Positions 1,115-64,000 of a stretch of DNA of 64,000 nt are shown one piece after another (position 1 is the first letter of the stretch; each line of letters begins with the position of its first letter). The stretch covers positions 1,600,017 through 1,664,016 of the forward strand of contig CATOSZ010000001.1 in assembly GCA_951812805.1 (NCBI GenBank), read 5' to 3'. The stretch comes from an uncultured Alphaproteobacteria bacterium. Its GTDB lineage: Bacteria > Pseudomonadota > Alphaproteobacteria > GCA-2731375. A program made the translations under genes and the position numbers. A model generated the notes under the pieces. That model searched no databases. It had not been told where the DNA came from and saw only the letters and a program-made list of their open reading frames with translations.

Positions 1115-4006
1115 TCAATTCCTCCGCCGGCGGAAATCGGCACCGTAATCCAGTCGGCCGACGCGGCCGCCGACACTCGGCGGCGGGGTCAGCGGCGCGG
1201 GCTTTGGCGACGTTTCGTCGCCCTCGCCCTCGCCCGCCTTCACGATCCGGATCCTGAGGTCGTACCAGGCCGCCTGACCGGTCACCGGATCGGCCAGGCC
1301 GTAACGGTGACCGCTTTCGTCCGCCGGCAACAACTCGTCGATGATGTGGTTCAACAGGAACCCCTCGCGCGCTTCCGGCGCGTTCGGGTCCAGGTTCCAG
1401 GCGCCGGCCCGCTTGCCGATGGCGTTCCAGGTCCACACCGTATCGGCGTTCACCCCCTCCATCAGCTTGGCCCGGGCCTTGACCCGGCCATGCCGGCTGA
1501 TCAGCCAGACCCAGTCCCCCTCGCCGATCCCCATGGCGCCGGCGCGCCCGCGTGGCAGGTAGATCGCGTTGGCGGCATGGATCTGCCGCAGCCATGCGTT
1601 CTGCGAGCCCCAGGAATGGTACATCGCCGCCGGACGCTGGGTGATCGCGTGGAAGGGATATTGTTCCAGGTCCTCGCTCGCCTGCTCCTCCAGCGGCGGG
1701 TACCAGATCGGCAGGGGATCGAAGTAGCGTTCGACCCGTTCGCGATGCCGATCGGGCGGCTGCACGGGACCATGGCCCCGGGCCGCTTGGCGGAAGCCGG
1801 CCAGGACCTCGCTATAGAGCTGCAGCACGATCGGCTCCGGCGCCGGGATGAAGCCGAGCCTTGCCGCCTTCTCCAGATAGGCCTTGTTGGCGTGCTTGTA
1901 ATAGCGCTCGTCCGGGGCCAGCTCGTGGCGCCAGAAGCACTGGTTGTCGATATAGGCCTGCAGCTGGTCCGGGTTGACCTCGCCCTTGCCCTCCGATTTG
2001 CCGTCGACGCCGCGGAAGCCGGCGAGCGAGCCGACGCCCGGCGTGCGTTCGTGATTGACGATATAGTCGGAATATCCGCCCGGATAGCGCGCCTTGCCCT
2101 CCTCCGTCGTCATCCCCGGCAGGCCGAGGCGGAAGCCGAGGTCGAGCAGGACGTCCTGGAAGGGACGCACGTCGCGGTCGGGCCGGAGCACCGGCTGGCG
2201 GATGGCGTCCGCCGCCCCGTCGGCGCCCGAGATCGGCCGGTCGAGCATCGAGATGCAGTCCCAGCGCTCGAGATAGGTCGTATCGGGCAGGATGATGTCG
2301 GCATAGGCCACCATCTCGGAATAGAAGGCGTCGACATAGAGGATCCGGGGGATCTTGTACTCACCGGTGTCCGGGTCCTTGTCGGTCAGCATCTCCGCGG
2401 TGCCGGTGGTGTTCATCGCCGAGTTCCAGGCCATGTTGGCCATGAACATGAAGAGCGTGTCGATTTTGTAGGGATCGCCCTTCCAGGCGTTGGTGATCAC
2501 CCGGTGCATGATGCCGTGGGCGGAGATCGGCGCCTCCCAGGAGAAGGCGTGATCGATCCGCCGCGGCGTGCCGTCCGCCTCGACCAGCAGATCCTCGGGC
2601 CCGAAGGTGAAGCCGAGCGGCGGGCCACCCATGGGCGAGCCGGCGGTGACCTGGTCGGGCTTGCCCGCGGGCTTCGGCCCGGGCGGGGCCGGCTTCGGGT
2701 ACGGCGGCTTGTAGCGAAAGCCGCCCGGCACGTCGATCGAGCCGAGCAACATCTGCAGCAAATGCAGGGCCCGGGTCGTATGGAAGCCGTTCGAATGGGC
2801 CGAGACGCCGCGCATGGCATGCATCGATACCGGGCGGCCGATCATCTTCTCGTGCCGGTGTCCGGTCCAGTCGGTCCAGGGCTGGTCGATCTCGATCTGT
2901 TCCTCGAAGGCGACCCGGGCCATCTCGGCGGCGATGCGCTGGATCGTCGCCGCGTCGATGCCGATTTCCCGTGCGACCTTCTCCGGCGCGTATTTGGCGT
3001 CGAGATAGCGTTCCGCCATCAGCTGGAAGGCCGGCACCGCCCGCCGCCCGTCGGCGAGCGTGACTTCGCCCTTGAGCGCCGGCGCCACGCCGGGCGCGCG
3101 TGCATTGGCCTCGGCGTCCGCGTTGCGGTCCCAGCACAGCGGGTTGCCGTCCCCGTCGCGGGCGAACAGCCCGTCCTCGGCCCCGCCCTCGTCGCGGATC
3201 ACCAGCCAGGGCGCGTTGGTATAGCGGATGAGATAGTCGACATCGACCTTACCGGCACGCAGCAGCTCATGCGCGAGGGAGAGCGCGAACAGTCCGTCGC
3301 GGCCGGGCCGGATCGGCAACCATTCGTCGGCGATCGCCGAATAGCCGGTGCGCACCGGATTGACCGAGATGAACTTGGCGCCCCGCGCCTTCAGGGTGGC
3401 GAGGCCGGTCTTGATCGGATTGCTGTCGTGATCCTCGGCGACGCCGAACATGATGAAATACTTGCTCTGTTCCCAGTCCGGCTCGCCGAACTCCCAGAAC
3501 GAGCCGCCGATGGTGTAGAGGCCGCCGGCCGCGATGTTGACGGAACAGAAGCCGCCGTGTGCGGCATAGTTGGGCGTGCCGAACTGGCTCGCCCACCAGC
3601 CGGTCAGGGCCTGGCTCTGGTCGCGGCCGGTGAAGAAAGCGAGCTTGCGGGGATCGTCCTTGCGGATTTCGCCCAACCACTCACTGGCCGTGGTCAAGGC
3701 CTCCTCCCACTCGATTTCCTTGAACTCCCCGCTGCCGCGCGGCCCGACGCGCTTCAGCGGTTTGGTCAATTTCGCCGGCGAGTTCTGGTGCATGATCCCG
3801 GCCGAACCCTTGGCGCAGAGCACGCCCTTGTTGACCGGATGATCGCGGTTGCCCTCGATATAGCGGATTTGCCCACCCTTCAGGTGAACCTTGATGCCGC
3901 AACGGCAGGCGCACATGTAGCAGGTCGTGTACTTCACCTCGTCCGATACATGCGGAGAGGTTTCCGCGGGCGCCGCAGGATGCGCCCAGCTTGCCGTTGA
4001 CGCCAC
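1115..4006 (-). CDS. Molybdopterin (bis-MGD) oxidoreductase catalytic subunit, DMSO reductase/polysulfide/tetrathionate reductase family
   Basis: 963-aa ORF with an N-terminal Cys cluster (TTCYMCACRCG) and molybdopterin oxidoreductase-like sequence throughout. GTG start at 4006 is preceded by GGGAGGAAGAGG. No RRxFLK twin-arginine motif is visible. Confidence 0.85.
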   Translation of the reverse strand: MASTASWAHPAAPAETSPHVSDEVKYTTCYMCACRCGIKVHLKGGQIRYIEGNRDHPVNKGVLCAKGSAGIMHQNSPAKLTKPLKRVGPRGSGEFKEIEWEEALTTASEWLGEIRKDDPRKLAFFTGRDQSQALTGWWASQFGTPNYAAHGGFCSVNIAAGGLYTIGGSFWEFGEPDWEQSKYFIMFGVAEDHDSNPIKTGLATLKARGAKFISVNPVRTGYSAIADEWLPIRPGRDGLFALSLAHELLRAGKVDVDYLIRYTNAPWLVIRDEGGAEDGLFARDGDGNPLCWDRNADAEANARAPGVAPALKGEVTLADGRRAVPAFQLMAERYLDAKYAPEKVAREIGIDAATIQRIAAEMARVAFEEQIEIDQPWTDWTGHRHEKMIGRPVSMHAMRGVSAHSNGFHTTRALHLLQMLLGSIDVPGGFRYKPPYPKPAPPGPKPAGKPDQVTAGSPMGGPPLGFTFGPEDLLVEADGTPRRIDHAFSWEAPISAHGIMHRVITNAWKGDPYKIDTLFMFMANMAWNSAMNTTGTAEMLTDKDPDTGEYKIPRILYVDAFYSEMVAYADIILPDTTYLERWDCISMLDRPISGADGAADAIRQPVLRPDRDVRPFQDVLLDLGFRLGLPGMTTEEGKARYPGGYSDYIVNHERTPGVGSLAGFRGVDGKSEGKGEVNPDQLQAYIDNQCFWRHELAPDERYYKHANKAYLEKAARLGFIPAPEPIVLQLYSEVLAGFRQAARGHGPVQPPDRHRERVERYFDPLPIWYPPLEEQASEDLEQYPFHAITQRPAAMYHSWGSQNAWLRQIHAANAIYLPRGRAGAMGIGEGDWVWLISRHGRVKARAKLMEGVNADTVWTWNAIGKRAGAWNLDPNAPEAREGFLLNHIIDELLPADESGHRYGLADPVTGQAAWYDLRIRIVKAGEGEGDETSPKPAPLTPPPSVGGRVGRLDYGADFRRRRN

Positions 4007-4097
4007 TTACCTCTTCCTCCCGGGCTCGCGCGTGAGTGGGCCGGACTGTACCCGCCGCCGGGCGCGGCCGGCAAGGGACGTTTGTCCGGCCCGTCGC

Positions 4098-5219
4098 TCA
4101 GTCGTCTGTCGAAGTGTCGTCGCCGTCCAGGCTGCGCAGCGCAAATCCGTAGGGCGGTTGCCAGGCCGCCTTGTCCGGATCGATGCCGAGCGAATCGGCC
4201 GCATGCAGGGGCCAGTTCGGATTCCAGATTGTCGGACGGACGAGGGCCACGAGCTCACCCAACCCGTCGGAAAGCGCGGCCTCGGAATCGACGTGCCCCT
4301 CGAGGCCACCGCCCACCATCACCGGCAGGCCGACCTCGCGGCGGATGGCGCGGGCCGTCGCCGCCTGTGCGCCATCGACGATGCCGTCCCCGGCCGCGAT
4401 CGGGCTGGCCCCGGAGGCGAGATCGATCACGTCGACGCCGGCTTGTTGCAACTCGTCGGCGAAGGCAACGGAATCCGCGACCCGCCAGCCGACCCTGCCG
4501 CTATCGACCGGTGCGGCGCGATAGAACAATGGCCGATCTTCCGGCCAGGCGGACCGTACGACCTCCGCCAGTTGCACCGGGAAGCTGATACGGGATTCCA
4601 CCACGCCGCCGTATTCATCGCCGCGCTTGTTGTCCTGGGGCGAGAGGAAGGCATGCGGGATGGTGCCGCGCCCGCCGTGAATCTCCAAGACGTCGAAGCC
4701 GGCCTCCGCACCGCGCCGCGCCGCCTGTTCGTAAATGCCGAGCAGTTCCTCGAGATCCTCGCGTGCGTATTCATGCGCGAGTGGATCCGACGCCACCTCG
4801 GTCATCGCCGGGTCCATGTCCCAGATCCCGAGGTTGGCCACATAAGGATCGACATCGCCTTCGGGCTCGTCCCAGGGCCGGAGGTTCAGCATGTCGTCGC
4901 CCCGGCAGGTCAGCTGGAGACCGACGGCCACCCCTTGCTGGTGTAGGAAATCCGTCAACCGGCGCAGCGCCACGATCTGCTCGTCCTGCCAAATGCCCAC
5001 CGCGCCTTGGAACATGCGGCCTTGCCGAGAGATGGCCGCCGCCTCGAGAAAGACGAGGGCCGAACCGCCGGCGGCGATCCGGCTCAGATGCGTCAAATGC
5101 CAATCACCGACCGTGCCGGCGACAGCCGAATAGGTCGCCATCGGTCCGAAAACGATACGATTGTCGAGGGTCAGGCCGCGAATCTCCAGCGGCGAGAACA
5201 GTTGTGGATCCCCGGGCAT
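4098..5219 (-). CDS. NADH:flavin oxidoreductase, Old Yellow Enzyme family
   Basis: 373 aa with the OYE TIM-barrel pattern (…GPMATYSA…HGGRGTIPHAFLSP…). ATG at 5219 with a GGAG RBS. Confidence 0.9.
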   Translation of the reverse strand: MPGDPQLFSPLEIRGLTLDNRIVFGPMATYSAVAGTVGDWHLTHLSRIAAGGSALVFLEAAAISRQGRMFQGAVGIWQDEQIVALRRLTDFLHQQGVAVGLQLTCRGDDMLNLRPWDEPEGDVDPYVANLGIWDMDPAMTEVASDPLAHEYAREDLEELLGIYEQAARRGAEAGFDVLEIHGGRGTIPHAFLSPQDNKRGDEYGGVVESRISFPVQLAEVVRSAWPEDRPLFYRAAPVDSGRVGWRVADSVAFADELQQAGVDVIDLASGASPIAAGDGIVDGAQAATARAIRREVGLPVMVGGGLEGHVDSEAALSDGLGELVALVRPTIWNPNWPLHAADSLGIDPDKAAWQPPYGFALRSLDGDDTSTDD

Positions 5220-5304
5220 GGCCTACTCCAGATGGGCGGCGCGTCGCTAATCCCAACGAGCCTAGCACACCTGTGCCCCGGCGGGCCATGGAGAGTGTGA
5301 GAAA

Positions 5305-6756
5305 TCAGCAGTTCTCATTATGGCTCTTGTTTCTGTCTCCTGGGTGATACTCGCTTGGGGTTCGGTTTCGGTTCAGAGGCTGGCTCTGGCAGGCGGTGGC
5401 TGCCCAGTGATGAGGGTCCGCACGAGGGCCGCCCAGGAGGGGAAGACGATGTAGCTGGTAATGGTGCGTAAGTGTTCGAAGAAGCGCCGACGTGAGCCAA
5501 GGGCGCCGCGGGCCTTTTCCCAGACGGCTTCGAGGATCTCGCACACGCCGTGGCAGGCGAAGGCGAAGAGGTTCATGGTGGCGAGCAGGGCCGAGAGGTT
5601 CTGTTTGCCATGTCCGAAGTTGTGCTCGAGATTGTAGCCGTTGTTCTTGAGCACGTTGAAGGTCTCGTTCTCGATCTTCCAACGGGCCCGCCCGCAGGCG
5701 GCGAGTTCGGCGACGTTGCTCCGGTCGACAGCGATGTCGGTGACGAAGCTGTTGCGGTACGTGACCTTTCCGGCCTTGTTGACGATCTCGATGTTGAGCC
5801 AGTTGACCCGGAGCGCGTCCTTACCGTCGCGGATCGGCACGTCGGCGAGCCAACGGTAGCGATGGGTCTGGAAGCCACGGCCTTTCTTGACCCGTTCCTC
5901 GTGGATCGGCAGTTCGATGCCGTCGAGCCATTCGTGGAGCGTCGGATGCGAGCCTGGCTTGGCGACGAACAGGAAGTTGCCGCCAACCGCTTGAACGGCC
6001 TCGCAAATCGGCTGGCGGGAATAGAGATCGTCGCCGAGATAGATCGGCTTCAGCCGGGCCAGGCCGGGCCCGTGCGCGACCAGCCAGCGCCGCGTCGCCC
6101 GGCTTTCGCAGTCCTGCTTCTCCCCGCCATCCTGGGGAACGACGAACTCCGGAGCCAGCGGTATCGCCCGGGCGTGGCCCGGGGCGACAAGCGCTGCCGT
6201 GACCATGTTGTGGTGATACTCCACGGCCCCGTCGTTGCGCTTGCGCTGCGAGCAGTTGGGGCAGGAGATCTTCCGCGAGCAGAAATATTCGGTGCCGTCG
6301 AGCGCGACCAGGAGATGGCCGTCCAGGCGTCGGAAGGGGCCGAGCCCACCGCCCGCCTCCAGACGTTCCAGCAGGGACGAGAAGAGCGGATAGAGCCTGT
6401 CCGGCACCACCGGGTCCAGCATCGCCCGGATCTGGTTGTCCGTCGGGATCCGCGACATGGAGAACAAGCTCTCACAATTCGAGCGCCCGTGCGCCCGCGC
6501 CAACGTGCGCTGATGGGACAGGAACGAGGGGCTCTGCATGAAGAACAGCGAGAAGGCCGAAAGCCCGAAGTCGGCCATGTCATAGCGGCTGTTGCTCCCC
6601 GTCCGCTTGTCCGGGAAGGACCCGCAGAGCGAGCGCAACTCCAATATCAGGTCTTTGAGCACCTTCATCGCCACTTTGAATCAGAAACCGGGCTCCTTGC
6701 ATAGGAAAAAATCAACGCAAATCGCCAAAATGAGAATTGCTGTCTACAGCCTGGGG
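5305..6756 (-). mobile_element. IS element (about 1.45 kb) carrying one DDE transposase; terminal IR approximately GCCAWAATGAGAAYTGCTG
   Basis: Imperfect inverted repeats at 5305-5326 (cagcagttctcattatggc) and 6738-6756 (gccaaaatgagaattgctg) flank the transposase ORF. Confidence 0.4.
5373..6668 (-). CDS. DDE transposase (IS4/IS701/ISNCY-like; family not resolved)
   Basis: 431 aa. The pattern VALDGTEYFCS…CPNC…YHHNMV…WKIENETFNVLKN is typical of IS4-superfamily transposases. Both ends of the ORF are flanked by IRs. Confidence 0.8.
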   Translation of the reverse strand: MKVLKDLILELRSLCGSFPDKRTGSNSRYDMADFGLSAFSLFFMQSPSFLSHQRTLARAHGRSNCESLFSMSRIPTDNQIRAMLDPVVPDRLYPLFSSLLERLEAGGGLGPFRRLDGHLLVALDGTEYFCSRKISCPNCSQRKRNDGAVEYHHNMVTAALVAPGHARAIPLAPEFVVPQDGGEKQDCESRATRRWLVAHGPGLARLKPIYLGDDLYSRQPICEAVQAVGGNFLFVAKPGSHPTLHEWLDGIELPIHEERVKKGRGFQTHRYRWLADVPIRDGKDALRVNWLNIEIVNKAGKVTYRNSFVTDIAVDRSNVAELAACGRARWKIENETFNVLKNNGYNLEHNFGHGKQNLSALLATMNLFAFACHGVCEILEAVWEKARGALGSRRRFFEHLRTITSYIVFPSWAALVRTLITGQPPPARASL

Positions 6757-18045: not shown

Positions 18046-18067
18046 GTCTGAACCTCGGGTCATGGTT

Positions 18068-18118
18068 CCCAGTCCCGGTTTTGAGAATGACAATCATTCT
18101 CAAAACCGGGACTGGGAA
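18068..18118. promoter_or_regulatory. Perfect 23-bp-arm palindrome with Fur-box-like core (GAGAATGACAATCATTCTC) upstream of the Fe3+ ABC transporter genes
   Basis: cccagtcccggttttgagaatga caatc attctcaaaaccgggactggg. The core resembles the Fur consensus GATAATGATAATCATTATC. Confidence 0.45.
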
Positions 18119-36090: not shown

Positions 36091-36107
36091 GATTGATCTG
36101 AAGCGCC

Positions 36108-36182
36108 CGGCCACCCACGCCCCCGGCCCAGCCACCCATGGTGTGTACCCTTGGGGTGGTTGGGCCGGGGGCGTGGGTGGCC
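36108..36182. repeat. Near-perfect 30-bp-arm inverted repeat (stem-loop) between convergent/serial genes
   Basis: cggccacccacgcccccggcccagccaccc [15-nt loop] gggtggttgggccgggggcgtgggtggccg (29/30 complementary). Confidence 0.4.
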
Positions 36183-36209
36183 GGGACTCAACTCGAAAGG
36201 ACTGAAAAA

Positions 36210-46482: not shown

Positions 46483-46723
46483 ATGGAAACGTCAAGCCCC
46501 CCGATCCCCGACCTCGTCATCCGCCCGCTCACCCCCCGTCTGATGGACGCCATGGGCCAGGCCCTGAAGGGCAGCTGGGGGGCAACCTGTTGGTGCCTCT
46601 ATCCCCGGATGTCGGACCGGGAAATGCGGGAATTGCCGGGGGACGGGCCGCTCGGTCCGCGCCGGCGGGCGGTGATGACGCGCCTCGCCCGCAAGCGCCG
46701 CGCGCCCGGTTTGCTGGCCTTCG
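46483..46723 (+). pseudogene. GNAT-like N-acetyltransferase N-terminal fragment, truncated by IS21 insertion
   Basis: METSSPPIPDLVIRPLTP…WGATCWCLYPR…RRAPGLLAFVR then runs into the IS21 left terminal repeats at about 46724. Confidence 0.45.
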
Positions 46724-46895
46724 TGCGCGTTTCGGAAAGTCCCGGACACCGATTACGGAAAGTCCTGGCCAGAGATTTCAGTAAGTCGCGGCCAGTGATT
46801 CCGGAAAGTCCCGGACAGCATCACGGGGCGATCTGAGTTCAGCTTTCGGGTGCGCCGTCTCGGCGTCTACCTCTTGGCTTTTGCCGGGAGGGGAC

Positions 46896-48449
46896 ATGCC
46901 CAGACGGAAGCAGACGAGACGAACGACGGTGAGAGATGCACGAACGATCCTGCGGCTGACGCATGACCAAGGCCTCTCGGCGCGAGAGGTGGCGGAACGG
47001 CTGAAGGTCTCCAAGACGACAGTGTCGACCTATTTGCTGCGGGCCCGCGAGGTCGGCCTTACCGCCTGGCCGCTGCCGGCGGAATACGAGGACGACGCGG
47101 TCCTGCAAGAGACGCTGTTCCGCCGCATGGGCCGGCCCCCGCGCGACAGGTGCGAGCCGCACTGGCCGACGGTCGCGGCCGAGCTGAAGCGCAAGGGGGT
47201 GACGCTGACCCTGCTCTGGCAGGAATACCGCGCCTCACATCCCGATGGCTACGGCTACACCTGGTTCTGCGAAGCCTTCACGGCGTTCAAGCGGCGCACC
47301 GGCGCCACCTGGCGCAACCGCCACGAGGCCGGTGCGGTCATGCAGACCGATTATGCCGGCCAGACGGTGGACATCGTCGACCCCGAGACCGGCGAGGTGC
47401 ACGACGCGCAGATCTTCGTCGCCGTGCTGGGCGCTTCCTCGCTCACCTTCGCCACCGCCAGCCTGACCCAGCGCCTGCCCGACTGGGTCGCCGGACAATG
47501 CCGGGCGCTCGCCTACTTCGGCGGCGTGCCCAAGAGCATCGTCTGCGATAACCTCAAGGCCGGCGTCGCCAAGCCGCTCTGGTTCGAGCCGACCCTCAAC
47601 CCGACCTTCGCCGCGCTCGCCGAGCACTACGACACCACCGTCCTGCCGACCCGGGTCCGCAAGCCGCGCGACAAGGCCAAGGTCGAAGTCGCCGTCCAGG
47701 TCGTCGAGCGCTGGATCCTGGCAAGACTGCGCAATACGCGCTTCTTCTCCCTCGACCAGCTCAACCGGGCGATCCGCGACCTCCTCGAGGAGCTCAACGA
47801 GCGGCCCATGCGCAACCTTGGAAAGAGCCGGCGCCAGATGTTCGAGGCCATCGAGCGCGAGGCCCTGGCACCCCTGCCGACGACGCCCTTCGAATATGCC
47901 GAATGGAAGACCGCCAAGGTCCATTCCGACTATCACGTCGACGTCGAGCGCAGCTTCTACTCCGTGCCGCACGGCCTGATCGGCCGCAAGGTCCAAGTCC
48001 GGCTCACTCACCGCACGGTCGAGATCTTCCACAACCACAAGCGCGTCGCCAGCCATCTCCGCCGCTCACCGCATGGCGGCCATGCCACGATCCCGGCCCA
48101 CATGCCCAAGGCGCACCAGCGCTATGCCGAGCGAACGCCACAAAGCCTGATCGACCAGGCCAGCCGCATCGGCCCCAACGCCGCCCTCCTGGTCGAGCGG
48201 ATGATCCGCGATCGGCCCCATCCCGAGCAAGGCTATCGCAGCGCCATGGGCGTCTTGTCGCTCGCCCGCCGATACGAACCGGAACGCGTCGAGGCCGCCT
48301 GCGCACGCGCGCTCACCATCAACACGACCAGCTACTCATCGCTCGCCGCCATCCTCAAGTCCGGCCTCGATCGCACACGCCCCGAGCGCGAACCGCTTCT
48401 GCCGCTGCCGCCACACACCAACATCCGCGGCCCCGGCTACTACCGATAA
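46896..48449 (+). CDS. istA: IS21-family transposase IstA
   Basis: HTH N-terminus plus DDE integrase core (…[33 protein letters not shown]…). ATG 46896 after GGGAGGGG. Confidence 0.9.
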
Positions 48450-48466
48450 CCAGGAGAAGACACCTC

Positions 48467-49243
48467 ATGCTGACACACCCGACCCTCGACCAGATGCAGG
48501 CCCTCGGCTTCAAGGGCATGGCAGAGGCTTACCGCGACATGGCCGAGCGAGGCCAATCATCGGAATTGAACCGCGAGGACTGGCTCGCCCTCATGCTCGA
48601 CCGCGAGGCCGCCACCCGCGCCGACAAGCGCCTCGCCAACCGCCTCAGACAGGCCAGGCTACGCTTCCCCGAGGCCTGCATCGAGGACATCGACTTCGCC
48701 GCCGAACGAGGCCTCGACCGCCGCGCCGTCCTCTCTCTCGCCCAGGGCGTCTGGCTCAAGGCACACGAGAACCTCATCGTCACCGGCCAGACCGGAACCG
48801 GCAAGACATGGCTCGCCTGTGCCATCGCCCATCAGGCCGCCAGGCTCGATCATTCCGTCCTCTACGTCCGCATGCCCAGGCTCTTCGAGGACCTCGCCAT
48901 GGCCCGCCTCGACGGCCGGCTGCCCCGCCTGATCGACCGCCTCGCCCGGGTCCAGCTGCTCGTCCTCGACGACTGGGGAACCCATGGCCTGACCGACCGC
49001 CAGCGCCTCGATCTCCTGGAAATCTGCGAGGAACGATACCACCGACGCTCAACCCTCATCACCGCGCAGATCCCCGTGACCGCCTGGCACGACCTGATCG
49101 GCGAGGCCACCATCGCCGACGCCATCCTCGACCGCGTCATCCACAACGCCCACCGCATCGGCTTGAAAGGCGACAGCATGCGAAAGAAGAAATCGACGAC
49201 CGACTTGACCCAGCCAACCACAACGGAAAACAATCCCGACTGA
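48467..49243 (+). CDS. istB: IS21-family helper ATPase IstB
   Basis: Walker [14 protein letters not shown]. Walker B LLVLDDWG. Confidence 0.9.
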
Positions 49244-49529
49244 CGGCAACAAGGCACCCGAAGCCAAACTCCCGGAACCGGCCGGGACTTTATGAAATCG
49301 GTGGCCAGGACTTACTGAAACCGCCGTCCGGAACTACCGAAATCCGCAGCCCGCCACGGAGGAAGAACTTTTCCCGTTCCTTGAAGGTCCTGGTGTCCCC
49401 GAAGGGGAGCGGTGTCCTGGGCCCGCGCACGCATCGAATCCAGTGTCGCCGCCTCGACGATCGCAGCCAGACGTCCTGCATCCAGAGCGGCGTCGAAAAT
49501 CCCCGCCAAAACTCTGGTGTCCCCAGATT

Positions 49530-51461
49530 TCAGACAGGATTATACCCGGGTATAATCGGGTAGGAGGGGTCCTCTCGGCGCCCCTCCTCCCACACCACCG
49601 GGCATACGTTCTACGTACCACGGCGGTTTCCGGTCAGTTGTAACGCGAGATACCTATCGGTCATAGGGACAAGCCCCTGGCCTTCGAACCAAGCCAGGGT
49701 CATGGCTTCGGTGGCTTGATAGCTGAGGGACTTGCGCCACCAGCCCTTGCCGGAGAGAGCCAAGATCCAGGCCCGCCGCTCGGGCACCCCGAGGCTTCGC
49801 AGGAAGTCCGCTTGCGCCTTGGTGCGCTTGCATTGCTTGAGCCGGACACAGCGCAGTTTTCGACGGATCCAGCCGTCGAGACGCCGAAGCTGGCTCGCGC
49901 AACGGGCATGGCGGAAGTACGTCACCCAGCCGGCGAGGAAGCCGTTGAGTTCGCCGACCATGCGCGCGAGGCTGATGCCCCGGTTGCGCCGGGTGATCTC
50001 GCGAACCCGTTGCTTCGCCCGCCGCAGGCTTTGCGGCGCGATGCCGAGCGATCCATCCGACAACAGCCGGTGGCCGAGGAACTTGCGGTCCCCGGCCGGA
50101 GCGACGGCACTTTTCTCCTGGTTGACCCGCAGATGCAACCTGCCTTGGAGGAATTCGGCGACCGAGGCCATCACCCGCTCGCCCGCCGCTCGAGTGCGAA
50201 CGTAGATGTTCACGTCGTCGGCATAACGGCAGAAGCTATGGCCCCGCGCCTCCAGCATCCGGTCCAGATCGTCCAGTAGAAGATTGGCCAGCAGCGGCGA
50301 CAGCGGGCCGCCTTGCGGCGTGCCCTCATGGCGCCGGATGCAGACGCCGGTCTGCATCATCCCCGCTTGCAGAAAGCGACGGATGGTGCGCAGCAGGCGC
50401 TTGTCGCCAATCCGCCCAGCCAGTCGGGACATCAGAATGTCGTGATTGACCCGGTCGAAGAACGCCTCCAGATCCAGGTCGACCACAATCCCGCGGCCTT
50501 CGGCAACGTACTTACCCGCTTGGGCCAGAGCATCGTGAGCGCTCCGGCCCGGACGGAAGCCGAAACTCGAAGCCGAGAAACCCGGATCGAGGATCGGCTG
50601 AAGGACGTGCAGGATGGCTTGCTGAACCAGACGATCCAGCACCGTCGGGATGCCCAATTGCCGCATCCCGCCTCCCGGCTTGGGGATCGAGACCCCCTTC
50701 ACCGGTTGGGGCCGATAGTCGCCTCGCGACAACGCCGCCACCAGCGCGTCCTTGTGATCGACGAGCCAGAGCCGCAGGTCTTGGATGGTCATCCCATCCA
50801 CGCCCGCCGACCCCTTGTTCGCCTTCACCCGCTTGTAGGCTTGGTTCAGGTTGGCGGAACTCACCACCCGTTCCATCAGGTCTTGCGTCAAGGCTCGTTG
50901 CCGGTCCAACGCCGTGCGCACTTGTGGCACCTCGCAGGCTCCAGTTCCGGTTCCGCCGTCACCAGGGGCCTCGGGGCGCAGCGCCTTCATCAGGGCCTCG
51001 TCGAAAAGGTCCAATTGATAGCCACCGCCTTGCTGCCGCTCCATGCTCATCGAGTTGGTCCAGACTGCTCCTTGCTATTCGGATTCGGCCCTTCGGCGCC
51101 TCGCGGCCCCTACTATGGCCTCGGCTGACTTCTCCACCGCCGTCGCTCCCCGTCGCCGGGTCGCTACTCGGTTCCCCCGAGAGCGCTGGAGATCTCCCTG
51201 GGTAAAACCTTGATCTTTCCGCCGGTCGCGGCCGGATTTACCAATGCGATGTCCGAACGACTATCGGGCATCGCCATCCATTGCTGGCTTACCCCATCGC
51301 ACCGGCCTGATATCCGGTTTCTGTTCGTCCGCTCCGGATTTTGCCTCCGGCTTCCTCCCCACCCCACCTCGCGGCGACGCAGTTGCCTTCAGCTAACGGT
51401 TCCGGTCGTTACGGCCCGTAGAGAACTTCCATCTCCTAGATCAACGCCATGCCAGGCACAC
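49530..51461 (-). mobile_element. Group II intron (class C-like, about 1.9 kb) inserted immediately 3' of a terminator hairpin; 3' boundary approximate
   Basis: The minus-strand 5' end GUGUG at 51461-51457 directly follows the hairpin plus U-run. A 479-aa RT/maturase ORF sits in domain IV. GNRA-capped D5-like hairpin at 49558-49596. 20-bp palindrome at 49538-49557. Confidence 0.6.
49611..51050 (-). CDS. Group II intron-encoded reverse transcriptase/maturase
   Basis: RT domains 0-7 (…AYKRVKANKGSAGVDGMTI…FGFRPGRSAHDAL…YADDVNIYV…) and X/maturase region. 479 aa. Confidence 0.9.
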   Translation of the reverse strand: MSMERQQGGGYQLDLFDEALMKALRPEAPGDGGTGTGACEVPQVRTALDRQRALTQDLMERVVSSANLNQAYKRVKANKGSAGVDGMTIQDLRLWLVDHKDALVAALSRGDYRPQPVKGVSIPKPGGGMRQLGIPTVLDRLVQQAILHVLQPILDPGFSASSFGFRPGRSAHDALAQAGKYVAEGRGIVVDLDLEAFFDRVNHDILMSRLAGRIGDKRLLRTIRRFLQAGMMQTGVCIRRHEGTPQGGPLSPLLANLLLDDLDRMLEARGHSFCRYADDVNIYVRTRAAGERVMASVAEFLQGRLHLRVNQEKSAVAPAGDRKFLGHRLLSDGSLGIAPQSLRRAKQRVREITRRNRGISLARMVGELNGFLAGWVTYFRHARCASQLRRLDGWIRRKLRCVRLKQCKRTKAQADFLRSLGVPERRAWILALSGKGWWRKSLSYQATEAMTLAWFEGQGLVPMTDRYLALQLTGNRRGT

Positions 51462-56422: not shown

Positions 56423-56461
56423 GGCGTTCGGTCTCCGTAAGACGATGAAAAGCGCCCGCCG

Positions 56462-56700
56462 CTGGTCTCCAGGCGGCCCTCCAGCCTCGCTCGGGCTCCC
56501 CTCCGATGCGCGGTGCCGGCTGCGGGTTGTATCGCGGCACGAGCGAGCTGAAACGTCGTATCGAAGACGGCGACGAAACACCCATACATTAGCGATACCC
56601 GTATTGACTGCTGGTCCCTTGGAGTCATATGCTGGCGGCCTCTTCACGGGGCCTCTTTCTACACGCTAGGAGCCCTGAAGTGATGTTGATCTCTCGAAAG
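56462..56700. repeat. Copy A of an about 240-bp duplicated divergent promoter/5'-UTR segment (copy B at 60885-61190)
   Basis: Near-identical sequence (…ggtctccaggcggccctccagcctcgctcggg…cgacgaaacacccatacattagcgatacccgtattgactg…) upstream of both SLP genes and of both divergent minus-strand genes. Confidence 0.6.
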
Positions 56701-57951
56701 CCCCAGTGGGGAGTGCCAGCCGCGGCCATGGCTGCGGCGCTGCTTGTCGCCGGATGCGGCAGCAGCACCACAGGCACTACGTCCGATGCGGCGACGCCAT
56801 CGAAGCCGGTTGCGCCGACCGAGCAGGAAAAGGCTGACGCCGCGAAACCGGTTGCGCCGAACGAGCAGGAAAAGGCTGACGCCGCGAAACCGGTTGCGCC
56901 GAACGAGCAGGAAAAGGCTGACGCCGCGAAACCGGTTGCGCCGAACGAGCAGGAAAAGGCTGACGCCGCGAAACCGGTTGCGCCGAACGAGCAGGAAAAA
57001 GCTGACGCCACGGCAGTATTGAGTAGCGACAGTTTTGTTAGTATTAGTAGCCCTCCTGCCAATCAACTGATCGCTGCGGCCACGGCAGCTGATGATGTCA
57101 CGAAGAAGGTAGCTGAGGAAATTGCGAGTGCAGCAGCCGCTACTCCTTCACTCGGCAGTGTTCACCAATCAACGGCTGCTCCCGATGCGCGTAGGAAGAA
57201 GATTGGCGTGTTGTCGTCCCGGCACTACAAGAACAATGTAGTGTTTTATGCCAAAGACGGTAATGGAAACTTTTTCCACGATTCAATAACTGACGGCACC
57301 GTCGTGAACGCTCCTATCGATGGATGGAATGGTGTTGAGTGGAAAAATAAGGATGATACCGGCACACTTCGTGTCAGGGGTTATGGAACAGAGCGCGGCG
57401 TCATGCCTCTTTTTGCCCTCGGTTATTGGCTCCATGTTCCAGACGATGCCACGAGTGCCGATTCCTATGAGGTTGGGGTCTTCGCCCTCGGCGGCGGCGG
57501 TGGTTTCAATACGGGACATCTCTCGGGCCTCACCGGCACTGCCACATACGAAGGCGATGCGGTCGGTCTGTATGCCAAGAGAGCCGCAGTCGAAGACACC
57601 CCTGACATCAAGGAGTTCACTGCCGATGTCGCTCTGACGGCGGATTTCGGCGCTAACACCGAACTCGGTAGCGTGAGCGGGACGGTATCCAACTTCAATG
57701 TCGGCGGCATGGAGAAAGCGCTGAAGTTGAGCCTCGGAAGCGCAACTATCACTGGCACCCGATACGGAGGCTTCTTCAAGGGAGGAGACACCAGCGCCGC
57801 TGGCGGGTTCTCGGGCAAGTGGGCAGGCGCGTTCTACGGCGACGGACAAGCCACCACCGACAAGCCAGCCAGCATCGTCGGGACCTTCGGCGCTGCGAAG
57901 AGTGATAAGTTGGAGAGCTTCATTGGGGCCTTCGGCCCCAAGAAGCAGTAG
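56683..57951 (+). CDS. Surface lipoprotein (SLP) with TbpB/fHbp-like C-terminal 8-strand barrel (copy 1)
   Basis: Lipobox LLVAGC. 5× in-frame 13-aa repeats (KPVAPNEQEKADAA). C-terminal domain …ATYEGDAVGLY…FTADVALTADF…LGSATITGTRYGGFFKGG…GAFYGD…IVGTFGAAKSDKLESFIGAFGPKKQ, characteristic of Slam-dependent lipoproteins. RBS AGGAG. Confidence 0.75.
   Translation: MLISRKPQWGVPAAAMAAALLVAGCGSSTTGTTSDAATPSKPVAPTEQEKADAAKPVAPNEQEKADAAKPVAPNEQEKADAAKPVAPNEQEKADAAKPVAPNEQEKADATAVLSSDSFVSISSPPANQLIAAATAADDVTKKVAEEIASAAAATPSLGSVHQSTAAPDARRKKIGVLSSRHYKNNVVFYAKDGNGNFFHDSITDGTVVNAPIDGWNGVEWKNKDDTGTLRVRGYGTERGVMPLFALGYWLHVPDDATSADSYEVGVFALGGGGGFNTGHLSGLTGTATYEGDAVGLYAKRAAVEDTPDIKEFTADVALTADFGANTELGSVSGTVSNFNVGGMEKALKLSLGSATITGTRYGGFFKGGDTSAAGGFSGKWAGAFYGDGQATTDKPASIVGTFGAAKSDKLESFIGAFGPKKQ
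56806..57000 (+). repeat. 5× tandem 39-bp in-frame repeat within SLP1
   Basis: aaaccggttgcgccgaacgagcaggaaaaggctgacgccgcg repeated head-to-tail. Confidence 0.85.
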
Positions 57952-57975
57952 CTCCGGGCGGGCTTGACTTCAAAC

Positions 57976-58029
57976 GGGCGGGGTCCGGAGAGAAACGCTC
58001 CGAGCCCCGCCCGGCTTTTTTCCGTTTTT
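57976..58029 (+). terminator. Rho-independent terminator after SLP1 (identical arrangement after SLP2 at 63437-63490)
   Basis: gggcggggtccggag agaaacg ctccgagccccgccc followed by ggcTTTTTTccgTTTTT. Confidence 0.6.
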
Positions 58030-58041
58030 AGTTTTCCATGT

Positions 58042-58102
58042 GGGCTTCTCCGAGGCGAGCGAGGCCGCTCCGGCGGAGGCCCCGCTCGCCTCGGAGAAGC
58101 CC
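58042..58102 (+). promoter_or_regulatory. 20-bp perfect inverted repeat overlapping the putative SD of Slam (also at 63503-63565)
   Basis: gggcttctccgaggcgagcg [21 nt] cgctcgcctcggagaagccc ends 5 nt before the ATG. The GGAGAAG SD candidate lies in the 3' arm. Confidence 0.5.
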
Positions 58103-58107
58103 ATCTC

Positions 58108-58760
58108 ATGCATCCGTTATCGATATTCCGTGCGCTGGCGTTGGGAACGGCGCTGGCATGTGCCGTACCAGCCTGGGCAAGACCGGATTCGACGCCACCC
58201 CGCGCCGATGCGGCCGAGGCCCAGGAACTTGTCCGCGATGGCCGGTTCGAGGACGCGCTGGAGCGTCTCCGCCCCCTGGCCGAAGGGGGCACGGTGGATG
58301 CGGCGGCGATGTTCCAGTTGGGCCTCGCGGCGGTGGGCGCGGCGCAAGAAGCGGATTTGGCGGAGGCGAAGCGCGAGGCGCTGCTGGCCGAGGCGATCGC
58401 GGCCTTCCGGTCGCTTCTGGTGCGTCGGCCGGGCCTGGTGCGGGTACGCCTGGAGCTGGCCCGTGCCTTCTTCTTGAAGGGCGAGGACGATCTTGCGAAG
58501 GCGCATTTCGAGCGCGTGCTGGCGGGCAAGCCACCGGCGGCGGTGATTCACAACGTCAACCGCCTTCTGGCGGAGATCCGCGCACGTAAGCGCTGGAGCC
58601 TCAATCTCGGCTTCGCGCTCGCGCCGGACAGCAACGTTTCGGCGGCGTCGGACAATCGGACGATCTGGATCGACACGGCCTACGGTCGTCTGCCGTTTAC
58701 CTACGAGACGGCGCCGAAGTCGGGTATCGGCGTCTCGGTGTGGGCCGGGGGTGAGTACCA
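58108..58760 (+). pseudogene. Slam-like (DUF560) surface-lipoprotein translocator, copy 1: N-terminal TPR + start of barrel, truncated by an IS1182-family fragment
   Basis: Signal peptide MHPLSIFRALALGTALACAVPAWA. TPR-like region. …KRWSLNLGFALAPDSNVSAASDNRTIWIDTAYGRLPFTYETAPKSGIGVSVWAGGEYQY, then IS-derived sequence from about 58757. Confidence 0.6.
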
Positions 58761-59340
58761 GTATCCGCGACGGACCCGGACTCGCGCATCATGCCGGTGG
58801 CCGGCGGCGGCTTCGAGCAGTGCTACAACGCCCAGGCTGCGGTGGCCGCCGGCAGCCTGCTGGTGGTCAGCGCCGACGTGGTGCAGGCGGCGAACGACAA
58901 GCAGCAGATCGAACCGACGCTCGAAGCACTCGCCGGCCTGCCGGACGGGCTTGGCGAGGTCGAGACCCTGTTGGCGGACAGCGGCTACTTCAGCCAGGCC
59001 AACGTCGAGGCCTGCGGGGAAGCGGAGATCGCGCCGCTGATCGCGCTCGGCCGGGAGCACCACCATCTTTCCTGGCGGGACCGCTTCGCCGAGGCGCCGC
59101 CAGCGCCCGAGGATCCGACGCCGCTCGAGGCGATGTGCCATCGCCTGGCCACACCCGAGGGCCGGGCGCTCTACGCGCTTCGCAAGCAGACGCCGGAGCC
59201 GGTGTTCGGCATCATCAAATCGGTGATGGGCTTGCGTCAGTTCAGCCTGCGCGGCCTCGACAAGGCGAAGGGGGAATGGACCTTGGCCACGCTCTCCTGG
59301 AACATCAAGCGGATGTTCGTCCTCAGCCACGCCTGAACGG
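58757..59340 (+). mobile_element. IS1182/IS5-superfamily transposase fragment (C-terminal about 190 aa only)
   Basis: …TDPDSRIMPVAGGGFEQCYNAQAAV…ADSGYFSQANVEAC…EPVFGIIKSVMGLRQFSLRGLDKAKGEWTLATLSWNIKRM… There is no N-terminal half upstream. Confidence 0.6.
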
Positions 59341-60841: not shown

Positions 60842-61062
60842 GGTGGATTGTCTCCGAGACTGATGTTGAGAGAGGCGAGCCCGCTGCGGTCTCCAGGCGG
60901 CCCTCCAGCCTCGCTCGGGTTCCCCTCCGATGCGCGGTGCCGGCTGCGGGTTGCAGCGCGGCACGAGCGGGCTGAAACGTCGTTTCGAAGACGGCGACGA
61001 AACACCCATACATTAGCGATACCCGTATTGACTGATGGTCCCTTGGAGCCATATGCTAGCGG

Positions 61063-61140
61063 CCTCTTCACGGGGCCTCTTCACGGGGCCTCTTCACGGG
61101 GCCTCTTCACGGGGCCTCTTCACGGGGCCTCTTCACGGGG
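61063..61140 (+). repeat. 13-bp tandem repeat (cctcttcacgggg) ×5+ in the SLP2 promoter/5' region; single copy at the equivalent position of SLP1 (56646-56660)
   Basis: ggcctcttcacgggg cctcttcacgggg cctcttcacgggg cctcttcacgggg cctcttcacgggg cctcttg…. Confidence 0.85.
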
Positions 61141-61168
61141 CCTCTTGCTAAACGCTAGGAGCCCTGAA

Positions 61169-63421
61169 GTGAAGTTGATCTCTCGAAAGCCCCAGTGGGG
61201 ACTGCCCGCCACCGCGATGGCTGCGGCGTTACTCGTCGCCGGATGCGGCGGTGGAAGTAATAAGAACGATTCGGCGGCGGCGGAGCCCCCGCCGGTGGCA
61301 TCGACCGAGCAGGAGCGGTTTGATGCGCGTGATGCGGTGAGGGCAGCCGAGAGTGCCCGGGCGGCTGCGGAGCGGGATGTTGCGGATAACGCGGTGTCTG
61401 AGATCGCGGCAGTATTGAATGCCGTCGAAGGTGAAGTGGCGAGGGCCAATGAGGCCGTTGACGCGGCCAGACTCGCAGGCACGGATGATGCCAGAGCTTC
61501 GGAGGCTGCCGACAGCGCTGCGTCTGAAGTAGAGATGGTGAACCAGGCGATGCAAGAAGTAGAAGCGGCGAGGCTTGCGCTGGACCAGGCGACTGCCGAT
61601 TACGAACAGGCCACGAGGGATGCGGACATTGAGACGCAGGCAGGCGCGACGGTCATCCAGACGGCGGCAAACACTCTGAAGGACGCAGCCGAGAACGCGA
61701 GTATGGCAGCGGCGACGGCCATGGAAAATGCCAACGTTGCCCTTGACGAGGCCATGTCATTCGCCCAGATGGCGGCTGACGCTGCGGAGCCGGTGGCATC
61801 GACCGAGCAGGAGCGGTTTGATGCGCGTGATGCGCGGAGTCTTGCTGAGGACGCACGTGCGGAAGCGCTGCAGATAGTTACCGACGACGCGGCATCTCGC
61901 TCAGAAAGATACGCGGACGTCGCTTCTGAAGCGCAAGAAAGGGCTAGGGCCGCTCGCACAGATGCTAGGACGGCTTCGGAGCAGAGTGAGAGGGCGTCCG
62001 AGCAAGCGGAGATCGTGAGGTCCGCAAGGGCTGCCCTGGATGAGGCTATTGCCGAGTACGAAAGGGCAACGCAGGATGCGGACATTGAAACGCAGCAAGG
62101 CGCGAGGGCCATCACGGATGCTGCGAACAACTTGAGGGACGCTGCCGACACGGCAAGGACGAGTGTCGAAGCGGCCATCGTCTCCGCCGAGACTTTTGCC
62201 GAGGAGGCAACCGCCGCTGCGGGTACGCATGTGCTTGAGCTGTTCAGGACGGCGAATGCATACGGCGAAGAGGCCGCAGAGCAAGATGCTTTCATCGAGG
62301 CGGCCGGTGAAGCGATTGTGGGGGCAGCCAATGCTAATAACGCCGACACCGTTTCGGTCACCCCTATCTGGAACAATGTGCCGGTCAACGGCGATACGCC
62401 AGCCGACGTGGATTTGAAATTCCAAGTTGATGACATCGAAGTAGACAGCGACAACGTGAGGGTCATCGACCCGCTCGGCGACTTCGAGCATGGGCGTGAG
62501 ATGGAGGTGGAAAATGGGTTCAAGCTAATCGTCTTCACGGACAAAAAGCAGGCCGATGCTCCAAGAGAAGGAGTAACAGCAATAGAAGCCAAGGAATTCA
62601 ATACCGCCTCGGTCCGTCTCGGCAAAGTCCAAGGCGACAGGAGCGATCCTGCTAACGTCACCTTCTACGACGAGGAGGATTTAGTTGGTGGGGCATCGAG
62701 GGATTTTCCAGATGCCGCGTACGCGTATTCTGGAGGCTTGACATGCCCAGATGCCACAGTTTGCTCCATCGAAACGGACGGCACTGTCGTGGGCTACGTG
62801 TTCACGGGGAAACGAGAGGCCGTAGCTGCTGTTTCAGCAAGAACTGGGAGGGAGCAAAACGACGACTACCTCTCGTTCGGCATCTGGTTGAAGGGGGATA
62901 ACGTCAGTAATCTTGCCTTCGGTGCTTTCGAGGACGGTGGCGATCCGATTGGGACAACAGATGGCTTAACGGGGATCACGGGCAACGCGACCTACAGTGG
63001 TTCGGCTGCTGGTGCCCATCACAAGACCGGCGAAGGCGTGAACTGGTTCGATGGCAAAGCGAGCCTGACTGCCAAGTTCGGGGATGCTTCGAGTCGGGGT
63101 ACCGTCGAAGGTGATATTAGCGAGATCAGAGTGGGTGGTGGCGCAGCACTGGAGGACAAGATTCGCCTGCAAACGACTCCTATTGGGGTCAGTGATACTG
63201 TTGCGGCCGGTGTGGCTGTGATGGGTTCGATCCTGGATGCGAATTCGAACGTACAGCACAAGTTCGAGGGCACGTGGAACGCGACTTTCTACGGGCCGGA
63301 TACGAACGATGAGGAAGAGAACATCGCCCCCAAGGCGATTGGCGGCACTTTTGGCGTCAGTGATACCACCGATGAGATTACCGAGAGCTTCATTGGTGCC
63401 TTCGGCGCCAAGAAGCAGTAG
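61169..63421 (+). CDS. Surface lipoprotein (SLP) copy 2: conserved signal/lipobox and C-terminal TbpB-like barrel, divergent Ala/Glu/Asp-rich repeat-containing middle
   Basis: GTG start (the ATG of copy 1 is AAG here). Lipobox LLVAGC. Two about 170-aa internal repeats (VASTEQERFDARDA…ATxDADIETQxGA…). C-terminus …NATFYGPD…IGGTFGVSDTTDEITESFIGAFGAKKQ. Confidence 0.75.
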   Translation: MKLISRKPQWGLPATAMAAALLVAGCGGGSNKNDSAAAEPPPVASTEQERFDARDAVRAAESARAAAERDVADNAVSEIAAVLNAVEGEVARANEAVDAARLAGTDDARASEAADSAASEVEMVNQAMQEVEAARLALDQATADYEQATRDADIETQAGATVIQTAANTLKDAAENASMAAATAMENANVALDEAMSFAQMAADAAEPVASTEQERFDARDARSLAEDARAEALQIVTDDAASRSERYADVASEAQERARAARTDARTASEQSERASEQAEIVRSARAALDEAIAEYERATQDADIETQQGARAITDAANNLRDAADTARTSVEAAIVSAETFAEEATAAAGTHVLELFRTANAYGEEAAEQDAFIEAAGEAIVGAANANNADTVSVTPIWNNVPVNGDTPADVDLKFQVDDIEVDSDNVRVIDPLGDFEHGREMEVENGFKLIVFTDKKQADAPREGVTAIEAKEFNTASVRLGKVQGDRSDPANVTFYDEEDLVGGASRDFPDAAYAYSGGLTCPDATVCSIETDGTVVGYVFTGKREAVAAVSARTGREQNDDYLSFGIWLKGDNVSNLAFGAFEDGGDPIGTTDGLTGITGNATYSGSAAGAHHKTGEGVNWFDGKASLTAKFGDASSRGTVEGDISEIRVGGGAALEDKIRLQTTPIGVSDTVAAGVAVMGSILDANSNVQHKFEGTWNATFYGPDTNDEEENIAPKAIGGTFGVSDTTDEITESFIGAFGAKKQ

Positions 63422-63576
63422 GTCCTGGCGGGCTTGACTTTAAACGGGCGGGGTCCGGAGAGAAGCACTCCGAGCCCCGCCCGGCTTTTTTCCGTTTTGT
63501 TTTTCCATGTGGGCTTCTCCGAGGCGAGCGGGGCCGCTCCGGTGGAGGCCCCGCTCGCCTCGGAGAAGCCCATCTC

Positions 63577-64000
63577 ATGTATCCGTTATCGATATTCCGT
63601 GCGTTGGCGTTGGGAACGGCGCTGGCATGTGCCGTACCAGCCTGGGCAGCGCCGGATCCGGCACGGCCCAGCGCCGATGTGGCCGAGGCCCAGGAACTTG
63701 TCCGCGATGGCCGGTTCGAGGACGCCCTGAAGCGTCTCCGCCCCCTGGCCGAAGGGGGCACGGTGGATGCGGCGGCGATGTTCCAGTTGGGCCTCGCGGC
63801 GGTGGGCGCGGCGCAAGAAGCGGATTTGGCGGAGGCGAAGCGCGAGGCGCTGCTGGCCGAGGCGATCGCGGCCTTCCGGTCGCTTCTGGTGCGTCGGCCG
63901 GGCCTGGTGCGGGTACGCCTGGAGCTGGCCCGTGCCTTCTTCTTGAAGGGCGAGGACGATCTTGCGAAGGCGCATTTCGAGCGCGTGCTGGCAGGCAAGC
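63577..64000 (+). CDS. Slam-like (DUF560) translocator copy 2, 3' end cut by the window edge
   Basis: MYPLSIFRALALGTALACAVPAWA… is more than 90% identical to copy 1 over the available 141 codons and is not interrupted within the window. Confidence 0.7.
   Translation, partial: MYPLSIFRALALGTALACAVPAWAAPDPARPSADVAEAQELVRDGRFEDALKRLRPLAEGGTVDAAAMFQLGLAAVGAAQEADLAEAKREALLAEAIAAFRSLLVRRPGLVRVRLELARAFFLKGEDDLAKAHFERVLAGK

Follow-up and report, generated by a model that had tools for sequence, protein, structure and literature searches.

The window, by which we mean the whole 64-kb stretch of DNA that was analysed, looks like a repABC-type replicon of a G+C-rich alphaproteobacterium and carries genes for RepC, a large serine recombinase, IS elements and group II introns. 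One group II intron reverse transcriptase gene (RVT_1 + GIIM; 49554-51460) adjoins repC and is single copy in the window, and two tandem copies of such a gene are found at 963-4365 of contig L098, which is otherwise 99.8% identical to the window. Two paralogous cassettes share the same order of elements, namely a promoter-like site, a lipoprotein gene (SLP), an intrinsic terminator, a 19-nt U-rich spacer, a hairpin and a Slam gene (Table 1).

Table 1. Features of the two SLP-Slam cassettes, in window coordinates
Feature	Position	Strand	Description
Sigma-70-like promoter, SLP cassette 1	56604-56633	+	TTGACT-18-TATGCT; sole promoter-like site upstream of SLP1-Slam
SLP1	56683-57951	+	422-aa lipoprotein; lipobox LLVAGC; 5x 14-aa repeat; C-terminal ...FIGAFGPKKQ and stop; gene caller uses same start
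Intrinsic terminator after SLP1	57975-58021	+	stem 57975-58013 (10+5 bp, -33 kcal/mol), GC, T6 at 58016-58021
U-rich unpaired spacer	58022-58040	+	CCGUUUUUAGUUUUCCAUG; 19 nt, last four bases CAUG
Hairpin copy 1	58041-58103	+	26-nt arms 58041-58066 / 58078-58103, A.C mismatch at 58062, 11-nt spacer
Slam copy 1	58108-58768	+	signal peptide and TPR domain alone; pseudogene
DDE transposase remnant	58791-59336	+	replaces remainder of Slam copy 1; PF01609, PF13751
Promoter-like site, cassette 2	61028-61057	+	conserved counterpart of cassette 1 promoter
SLP2	61169-63421	+	750-aa lipoprotein; same as gene 4700-6952 of contig L099 (offset 56469)
Intrinsic terminator after SLP2	63445-63491	+	stem 63445-63483, T6 at 63486-63491
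Hairpin copy 2	63510-63572	+	perfect 26-bp arms 63510-63535 / 63547-63572, 11-nt spacer
Slam copy 2	63577-64000	+	runs off window; intact 454 aa on contigs identical to window

The downstream genes are identified as Slam by TPR_Slam and TPR_16 matches on the fragments in the window and by a PF04575 (SlipAM/DUF560) match on the full-length copy-2 protein (P0121, 454 aa), which was recovered from contigs identical to the window and possesses an N-terminal TPR region, a full C-terminal barrel and a C-terminal Phe. The Slam ATG is the true start, as the signal peptide aligns with the N-termini of homologues and the gene caller picks the same start in related contigs. Homology of copy 1 to Slam ends at about codon 219, after which the remnant of a DDE transposase follows (58765-59336). 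Copy 1 is thus a pseudogene, and its truncation at codon 219 means that regulation can matter for copy 2 alone. On a related contig, L001, Slam is split by IS21 (3362-5989, 100% identical to 46723-49350 of the window), and P0123 is another truncated allele, of 129 aa, so that of the four Slam alleles known behind this leader three (copy 1, L001 and P0123) are truncated or IS-split. Slam protein homologues in a large database are mostly 200-380 aa long, below full Slam length.

Both SLPs carry the lipobox LLVAGC, and each SLP gene lies directly upstream of Slam, an adjacency that serves as a criterion for Slam-dependent surface lipoproteins (PMC5449769). The SLP label rests on the lipobox, on this adjacency and on TbpB_B_D matches in the family of the C-terminal domain, which is weakly TbpB_B_D-like (5 of 19 aligned homologous domains match PF01298, best E = 2.7e-4); sequence searches with the window SLP proteins themselves gave no Pfam, NCBIfam or PDB match. 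Within SLP1, positions 56793-57009 consist of 5.1 tandem copies of a 42-nt unit that encodes a 14-aa repeat, KPVAPNEQEKADAA.

The hairpin before Slam and its predicted fold

A sequence-only reading of this DNA had described a 20-bp perfect inverted repeat ending 5 nt before the Slam ATG, and both statements hold: the arms GGGCTTCTCCGAGGCGAGCG and CGCTCGCCTCGGAGAAGCCC lie at 58042-58061 and 58083-58102 and are followed by ATCTC and the ATG at 58108-58110. The repeat is in fact longer than described, with arms of 26 nt and a total length of 63 nt, and the 26-nt stem ends 4 nt (TCTC) before the ATG. Pairing in the arms is purely Watson-Crick, with G.U pairs absent; the stem of copy 1 comprises 21 + 4 bp around a single mismatch and that of copy 2 comprises 26 continuous bp. 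A near-identical second copy does exist before the copy-2 ATG at 63577, as had been reported, but the coordinates given for it, 63503-63565, are about 7 nt too low.

The sole SD-like motif before Slam is GGAG, at 58093-58096 in copy 1 and 63562-63565 in copy 2 (-15 to -12 relative to the ATG), and it lies inside the 3' arm, where the same reading had placed it. The SLP1 gene has AGGAG at a spacing equal to that of the Slam GGAG, so the organism appears to use SD motifs of this kind. The CAUG at 58037-58040 can in addition pair with the CAUG at 58107-58110, which holds the Slam start codon, and this would extend the stem by 4 bp.

Perfect inverted repeats of this length are not expected by chance. 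The longest one here measures 26 nt, compared with 10-13 nt in ten simulated Markov-1 sequences of 64 kb, and the 20-mer arm, allowing at most three mismatches, is expected 0.07 times in the 64-kb window and was found four times, these being the four arms. Across 888 kb of related genomes there are just two perfect inverted repeats of at least 18 nt, when a poly-C/poly-G stretch of locus L034, taken as an assembly artefact, is left aside. The hairpin is real, non-random and physically striking. Elsewhere in the window, a perfect 25-bp inverted repeat with a 3-nt loop (18066-18118) lies between convergent ORFs and may be a bidirectional terminator or a protein-binding site.

Folded alone, the hairpin reaches -58.3 kcal/mol in copy 1 and -64.7 kcal/mol in copy 2, the upstream terminator of copy 1 folds at -33.1 kcal/mol, and the z-scores of the whole-region folds are -5.5 and -8.0 for the two copies. 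The occlusion of the ribosome-binding site (RBS) on the RNA that had been proposed is what these folds predict, since the hairpin buries GGAG and the CAUG:CAUG extension buries part of the start codon (P(unpaired) of the Slam AUG is 0.16-0.35 at 37 °C). Opening the ribosome footprint from -20 to +13 would cost +35.7 and +36.2 kcal/mol in the two window copies, and the range is 35.7-36.2 kcal/mol when the L001 allele is included.

The sequence-only reading had further suggested that such a hairpin could be gated by temperature, by an sRNA or by a protein. There is a precedent in the same secretion system (Slam / surface lipoprotein), as the mRNA of one of its cargos, fHbp of Neisseria meningitidis, contains a heat-labile RNA thermosensor in which the RBS pairs with an anti-RBS in a hairpin (PMC10914675). 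The hairpin studied here likewise pairs the RBS, with the SD in the 3' arm paired and the AUG partly paired in silico. However, the fHbp sensor controls the cargo and yields to heat, whereas the present hairpin stands before Slam and is predicted to be folded at any physiological temperature. Folding at different temperatures gave a mean P(unpaired) of the SD of 3e-4 at 37 °C, 5e-3 at 75 °C and 0.1 at 100 °C, and over this in silico melting to 100 °C the marginal stability of a thermometer, with melting inside the temperature range of the organism, was not seen. Because the stem stays folded in silico up to at least 90 °C, with the SD still paired far above physiological temperatures, an RNA thermometer is ruled out at the level of prediction and thermal gating is largely refuted.

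The other gates fare no better. In the 64-kb window the only complement of an arm is the other arm, which leaves no sRNA candidate there; invasion of a 26-bp GC duplex by an sRNA strand would be kinetically implausible, and nothing points to a protein gate. The hairpin matches no Rfam family, as a search at E <= 1 returned only plant and animal miRNA-precursor models at 25-32 bits, against gathering thresholds of 60-150, a generic artefact of long hairpins, and it is not conserved in relatives. We therefore consider a gated riboregulator, whether it answers to temperature, to an sRNA or to an RNA-binding protein, very unlikely despite the sequestered SD and AUG.

Transcription into Slam

The SLP promoters are all the promoters predicted for the cassettes, and neither a promoter scan nor a reading of the sequence found sigma-70-like hexamers between the SLP terminator and Slam. 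As only 19 nt separate the T-run from the hairpin and no promoter is predicted there, we infer that Slam would be transcribed solely by read-through of the SLP terminator. A promoter of its own or a leaderless start for Slam was rejected on the absence of the hexamers. In the SLP leaders, between the -10 box and the SLP start, there is a 13-nt tandem repeat, GGCCTCTTCACGG, with 6.6 copies in cassette 2 (61061-61146), 4.6 in L001 (1834-1893) and about 1.8 in cassette 1 (56637-56660); this tract could provide phase variation or expression tuning.

Translation of Slam from an upstream start or by coupled read-through, a scenario that had been raised as a challenge to the occlusion, was also rejected. 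The SLP and Slam ORFs of cassette 1 share a frame, with a single TAG as the sole stop between them (57949-58110), whereas a 1-nt deletion in cassette 2 places them in different frames. As the frame relation differs between the cassettes, the shared frame in cassette 1 was judged coincidental and an SLP-Slam read-through fusion was dismissed; the Slam ATG is, moreover, the true start. An ORF from an ATG at 58038, which would run 183 codons out of frame across Slam, has no SD and was deemed spurious as a leader peptide.

The hairpin is a G+C-rich stem-loop as intrinsic terminators are, but it was rejected as one because a U-tract 3' of the stem is absent: UCUCAUGC / TCTCATGC comes directly after the stem, and the upstream hairpin (58002-58017 / 63472-63487) is all that the terminator scan reports. 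A derivation of the hairpin from that terminator was likewise rejected, as the two align locally with a score of 16, which 266 of 500 shuffles equalled or exceeded.

These observations also bear on whether the hairpin might protect RNA ends, either as a barrier to 3' exonucleases or as a 5' stabiliser after an RNase E cut in the U-rich spacer, or might serve as a weak backup terminator. It does come after a U-rich single-stranded stretch, stabilising intercistronic hairpins are known in alphaproteobacterial operons such as Rhodobacter puf, and a further long hairpin that lacks a U-tract lies between two genes of the window, at 36106-36185. Yet the SLP mRNA already ends at a canonical terminator, the missing U-tract and the terminator scan argue against a second one, and a stabiliser need not swallow the SD, which the 36106-36185 hairpin leaves free; we consider this reading improbable. 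The 36106-36185 element is an inverted repeat with 32-nt arms that are 97% complementary and a 16-nt spacer; it lies between co-directional genes and ends 25 nt before an ATG at 36211.

Intercistronic terminators and hairpins set the stoichiometry of operons such as Rhodobacter puf and, with REP sequences, E. coli malEFG. The arrangement here would resemble them in that a terminator and stem-loops separate a product made in abundance upstream from a scarce one downstream, whereas the hairpins of those operons chiefly affect the stability of the mRNA and leave the downstream SD outside.

Copies, relatives and the origin of the palindrome

The two hairpins differ at 2 of 63 positions, an A/G at 58062 and a C/T in the loop, and the sequence-only reading had taken their likeness as a sign of function. 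We cannot support this argument. The cassettes are about 95-97% identical both in the promoter/leader/lipobox block (56454-56760 / 60879-61249) and in a 3' block (57913-58768 / 63383-64000) that starts some 45 nt upstream of the SLP stop and continues across the intergenic region into the Slam gene, and about 300 nt of Slam coding sequence are identical between them; the SLP bodies are unrelated, and only the 5' leader/lipobox and the last 45 nt or so are common to SLP1 and SLP2. Variation in the hairpin is no lower than in the flanks, which are equally or more conserved. The block made up of the SLP 3' end, intergenic region and Slam is a recent duplication at about 97% identity, which accounts for the agreement of the copies, and their likeness is then no evidence of selection.

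ENA sample ERZ18545485, which contains contigs identical to the window, also yielded L001, and this third allele has A at the first of the two variable positions, as in copy 1, and T at the second, as in copy 2. Among the three near-identical alleles we found no compensatory change or covariation in the stem. Over a cassette divergence of about 3-5% the outer 21 bp have no stem-breaking change, for which P is about 0.1. The perfect stem occurs with the intact Slam of copy 2 and the A.C mismatch with the two disrupted Slams of copy 1 and L001, an association that is anecdotal.

In the L001 cassette (2059-3361), a mosaic, the body resembles that of SLP1 (89%) and the 3' block that of copy 2 (99.3%), a combination suggestive of recombination or gene conversion between SLP cassettes. 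One could imagine that the palindrome acts in this at the DNA level, forming a cruciform or hairpin that stalls replication or is nicked and so promotes recombination that shuffles variable SLP bodies between conserved flanks. In keeping with this idea, unrelated middles are flanked in the cassettes by conserved 5' and 3' blocks, and the 3' block contains the palindrome, whose arms are perfect in the Watson-Crick sense, G.U pairs being absent. Nothing, however, ties the mosaic breakpoints to the palindrome, relatives share the cassette layout without it, and at 63 bp it is smaller than the palindromes that SbcCD usually attacks, so that we give this reading little credence. A bolder version, equally hard to credit, combines the two levels: the palindrome DNA would trigger recombination of SLP cassettes, as an analogue of the Neisseria pilE G4, and diversify the lipoproteins of a sponge symbiont, while the RNA form would lock Slam until dsRNA-specific processing.

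All known copies of the palindrome, two in the window, one in L001 and those at the same loci on contigs L098-L101, lie in SLP-Slam spacers; for the same genome, this covers the 64-kb window plus some 25 kb on additional contigs. None turned up in 0.89 Mb of related MAG loci or in IMG/VR, the latter scanned with the 20-mer arm, and PLSDB contained no match, near or distant, to the cassette or the intergenic region. JGI metagenomes returned 17 matches, all of a single arm inside coding sequence, where the best partner arm has 7-10 mismatches, and these are chance coincidences; the GFSEAS that the arm encodes in them resembles a conserved helix-turn-helix motif of the AraC type. Among 5.8 billion protein clusters, peptides translated from the hairpin in all six frames matched only a spurious antisense ORF over copy 2 (P0124), in a search of low sensitivity in which a perfect match scores 29 bits (E = 0.43).

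This distribution argues against a dispersed palindrome of the REP, BIME or MITE kind that landed before Slam by chance. The element does look like such sequences, being short, G+C-rich and nearly perfect, it resembles an insertion into a short intergenic spacer, CATG is found on both sides (directly before the palindrome and, offset by 3 nt (TCT), after it), and the genome is full of mobile elements. However, there are no dispersed copies in the sequences searched, no clear target-site duplications and no associated transposase, and we hold this origin to be highly improbable.

The relatives comprise 78 Slam loci with 48-67% amino-acid identity, collected in a scan of GTDB species genomes; several have sponge-associated names (Poriferihabitaceae, Entotheonellaceae) and many others are labelled Alphaproteobacteria or Binatia. 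This Slam subfamily (loci L003-L080) is expanded in uncultured MAGs across several phylum labels, and some MAGs have multiple copies on one contig, for example four within about 100 kb of CBDCIT010000030.1. None of the 78 loci has a long hairpin adjoining the start codon. Among the 64 with a usable start, the median cost of opening -20 to +13 is 10.8 kcal/mol, and the maximum of 32.7 kcal/mol (L029) was discarded as a second high-cost case because it is an artefact of a mis-assigned start. A canonical terminator precedes Slam in 32 of these 64, mostly ending 30-45 nt upstream of the ATG; the spacer from terminator to ATG is about 19-47 nt, and many spacers have a weak GAGG, GGAG or AGAG some 8-11 nt before the ATG. 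The recurrence of a terminator followed by Slam is consistent with attenuated Slam expression as the ancestral logic, and compared with this conserved layout of terminator, spacer and Slam the palindrome is a lineage-specific addition.

The terminator stem AGGGTGGC...GCCACCCT is itself conserved in sequence in 21 related loci, and 20 of its 22 occurrences in the 0.89 Mb searched fall within the SLP-Slam spacer, most followed by a T-run. Loci with it include L004, L006, L009-L014, L016, L019-L021, L034, L038, L043, L045, L061, L066, L073 and L078, in MAGs labelled Alphaproteobacteria, Binatia, Entotheonellaceae and Acidobacteriota. Terminators are not usually conserved in this way, and the pattern suggests either horizontal spread of the cassette or a sequence-specific role.

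When one arm and the loop are removed in silico, the remaining spacer aligns with the spacers of relatives, including the GAGG/GGAG motif, and the palindrome may therefore have arisen by inverted duplication of the RBS segment. The main rival to the lock described below, possible if somewhat doubtful, is that nothing more than this happened: a template switch or inverted duplication of the RBS spacer would have occurred once, recently, and been copied with the cassette, leaving a palindrome without function that silences, or nearly silences, Slam genes already in decay. The hairpin-free relatives with their short spacers, the copies that are as similar as their flanks, the truncated or IS-split state of copy 1, the L001 allele and P0123, and the abundance of IS elements in the region all fit such a history. 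What fits it poorly is the copy-2 Slam, intact at 454 aa with a full SlipAM barrel and C-terminal Phe and lying beside a 750-aa lipoprotein that needs a translocator, and also the preserved outer 21 bp, although P is only about 0.1.

A candidate translational lock on Slam

The reading that we tentatively prefer, while holding it at less than even confidence, is that the hairpin is a lineage-specific static translational lock which joins with the upstream terminator to hold Slam at a level far lower than that of SLP and is opened only by processing, most plausibly by RNase III. The palindrome would have added about 63 nt (about 42 nt if one arm is ancestral) to a layout of SLP, terminator, spacer (about 30-45 nt) and Slam. 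Read-through of the SLP terminator would produce the Slam transcripts, each carrying the palindrome, and in these the palindrome would fold into a G+C-rich hairpin of 26-30 bp and -58 to -65 kcal/mol that buries the SD and part of the AUG. Such a hairpin would be a static lock and not a sensor, adding to the transcriptional attenuation, and under terminator and lock combined far less Slam translocon than lipoprotein cargo would be made. The cost of opening the ribosome footprint, about 36 kcal/mol and an outlier against the relatives' median of 10.8 kcal/mol, favours this reading. On the relation between RBS hairpin stability and expression reported by de Smit and van Duin, a hairpin this strong should abolish initiation unless it is actively removed.

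Some Slam expression is presumably needed, because the Slam of copy 2 is intact and so is the 750-aa lipoprotein encoded next to it. As the stem cannot be expected to open spontaneously, translation of copy-2 Slam would require active removal of the 5' arm, and RNase III is the most plausible agent, since no other ordinary activity of the cell suits a perfect RNA duplex of 26 bp. Unmasking of an RBS by RNase III is established for E. coli adhE and lambda cIII (PMC5371410). As in those cases, the RBS here is enclosed in a long duplex that precedes the start codon and spans at least about two helical turns; the 26-bp duplex suffices as a substrate for RNase III, and the predicted cut would free the 3' arm that bears the SD. 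The differences are that the stem here is perfect and much more stable, that its position is intercistronic, downstream of a terminator, and its occurrence limited to one lineage, and that its cleavage by RNase III is a prediction, the outcome of which could be activation or decay.

Several observations weigh against the proposed lock. Evolutionary support is absent, in that variation in the stem is not significantly below that of the flanks and the hairpin is missing from every relative examined; a stability of -60 kcal/mol far exceeds what tuning would need; and the IS-disrupted state of three of the four Slam alleles would fit relaxed selection. The hairpin belongs to a known kind of element, the RBS-occluding stem-loop. 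Since it occurs in one lineage only, draws no support for a function from the comparison with relatives and is far too stable to switch with temperature, we regard it as a curiosity of local interest and not as a conserved regulator.

Should the lock prove functional, no post-transcriptional control of the Slam/type 11 secretion translocon would have been described before it; it would also be an extreme case of RBS occlusion that requires processing to open, and would show by what means a cell can keep a potentially toxic pore in the outer membrane much scarcer than the abundant cargo. Should it lack a function, the palindrome would illustrate how a single inverted duplication can silence a gene while its coding sequence remains untouched, a change that is invisible to gene annotation. 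Either way its general significance is limited, as the effect is confined to one uncultured alphaproteobacterial lineage, and the more general regulatory feature of these cassettes is the SLP-Slam terminator that is found family-wide.
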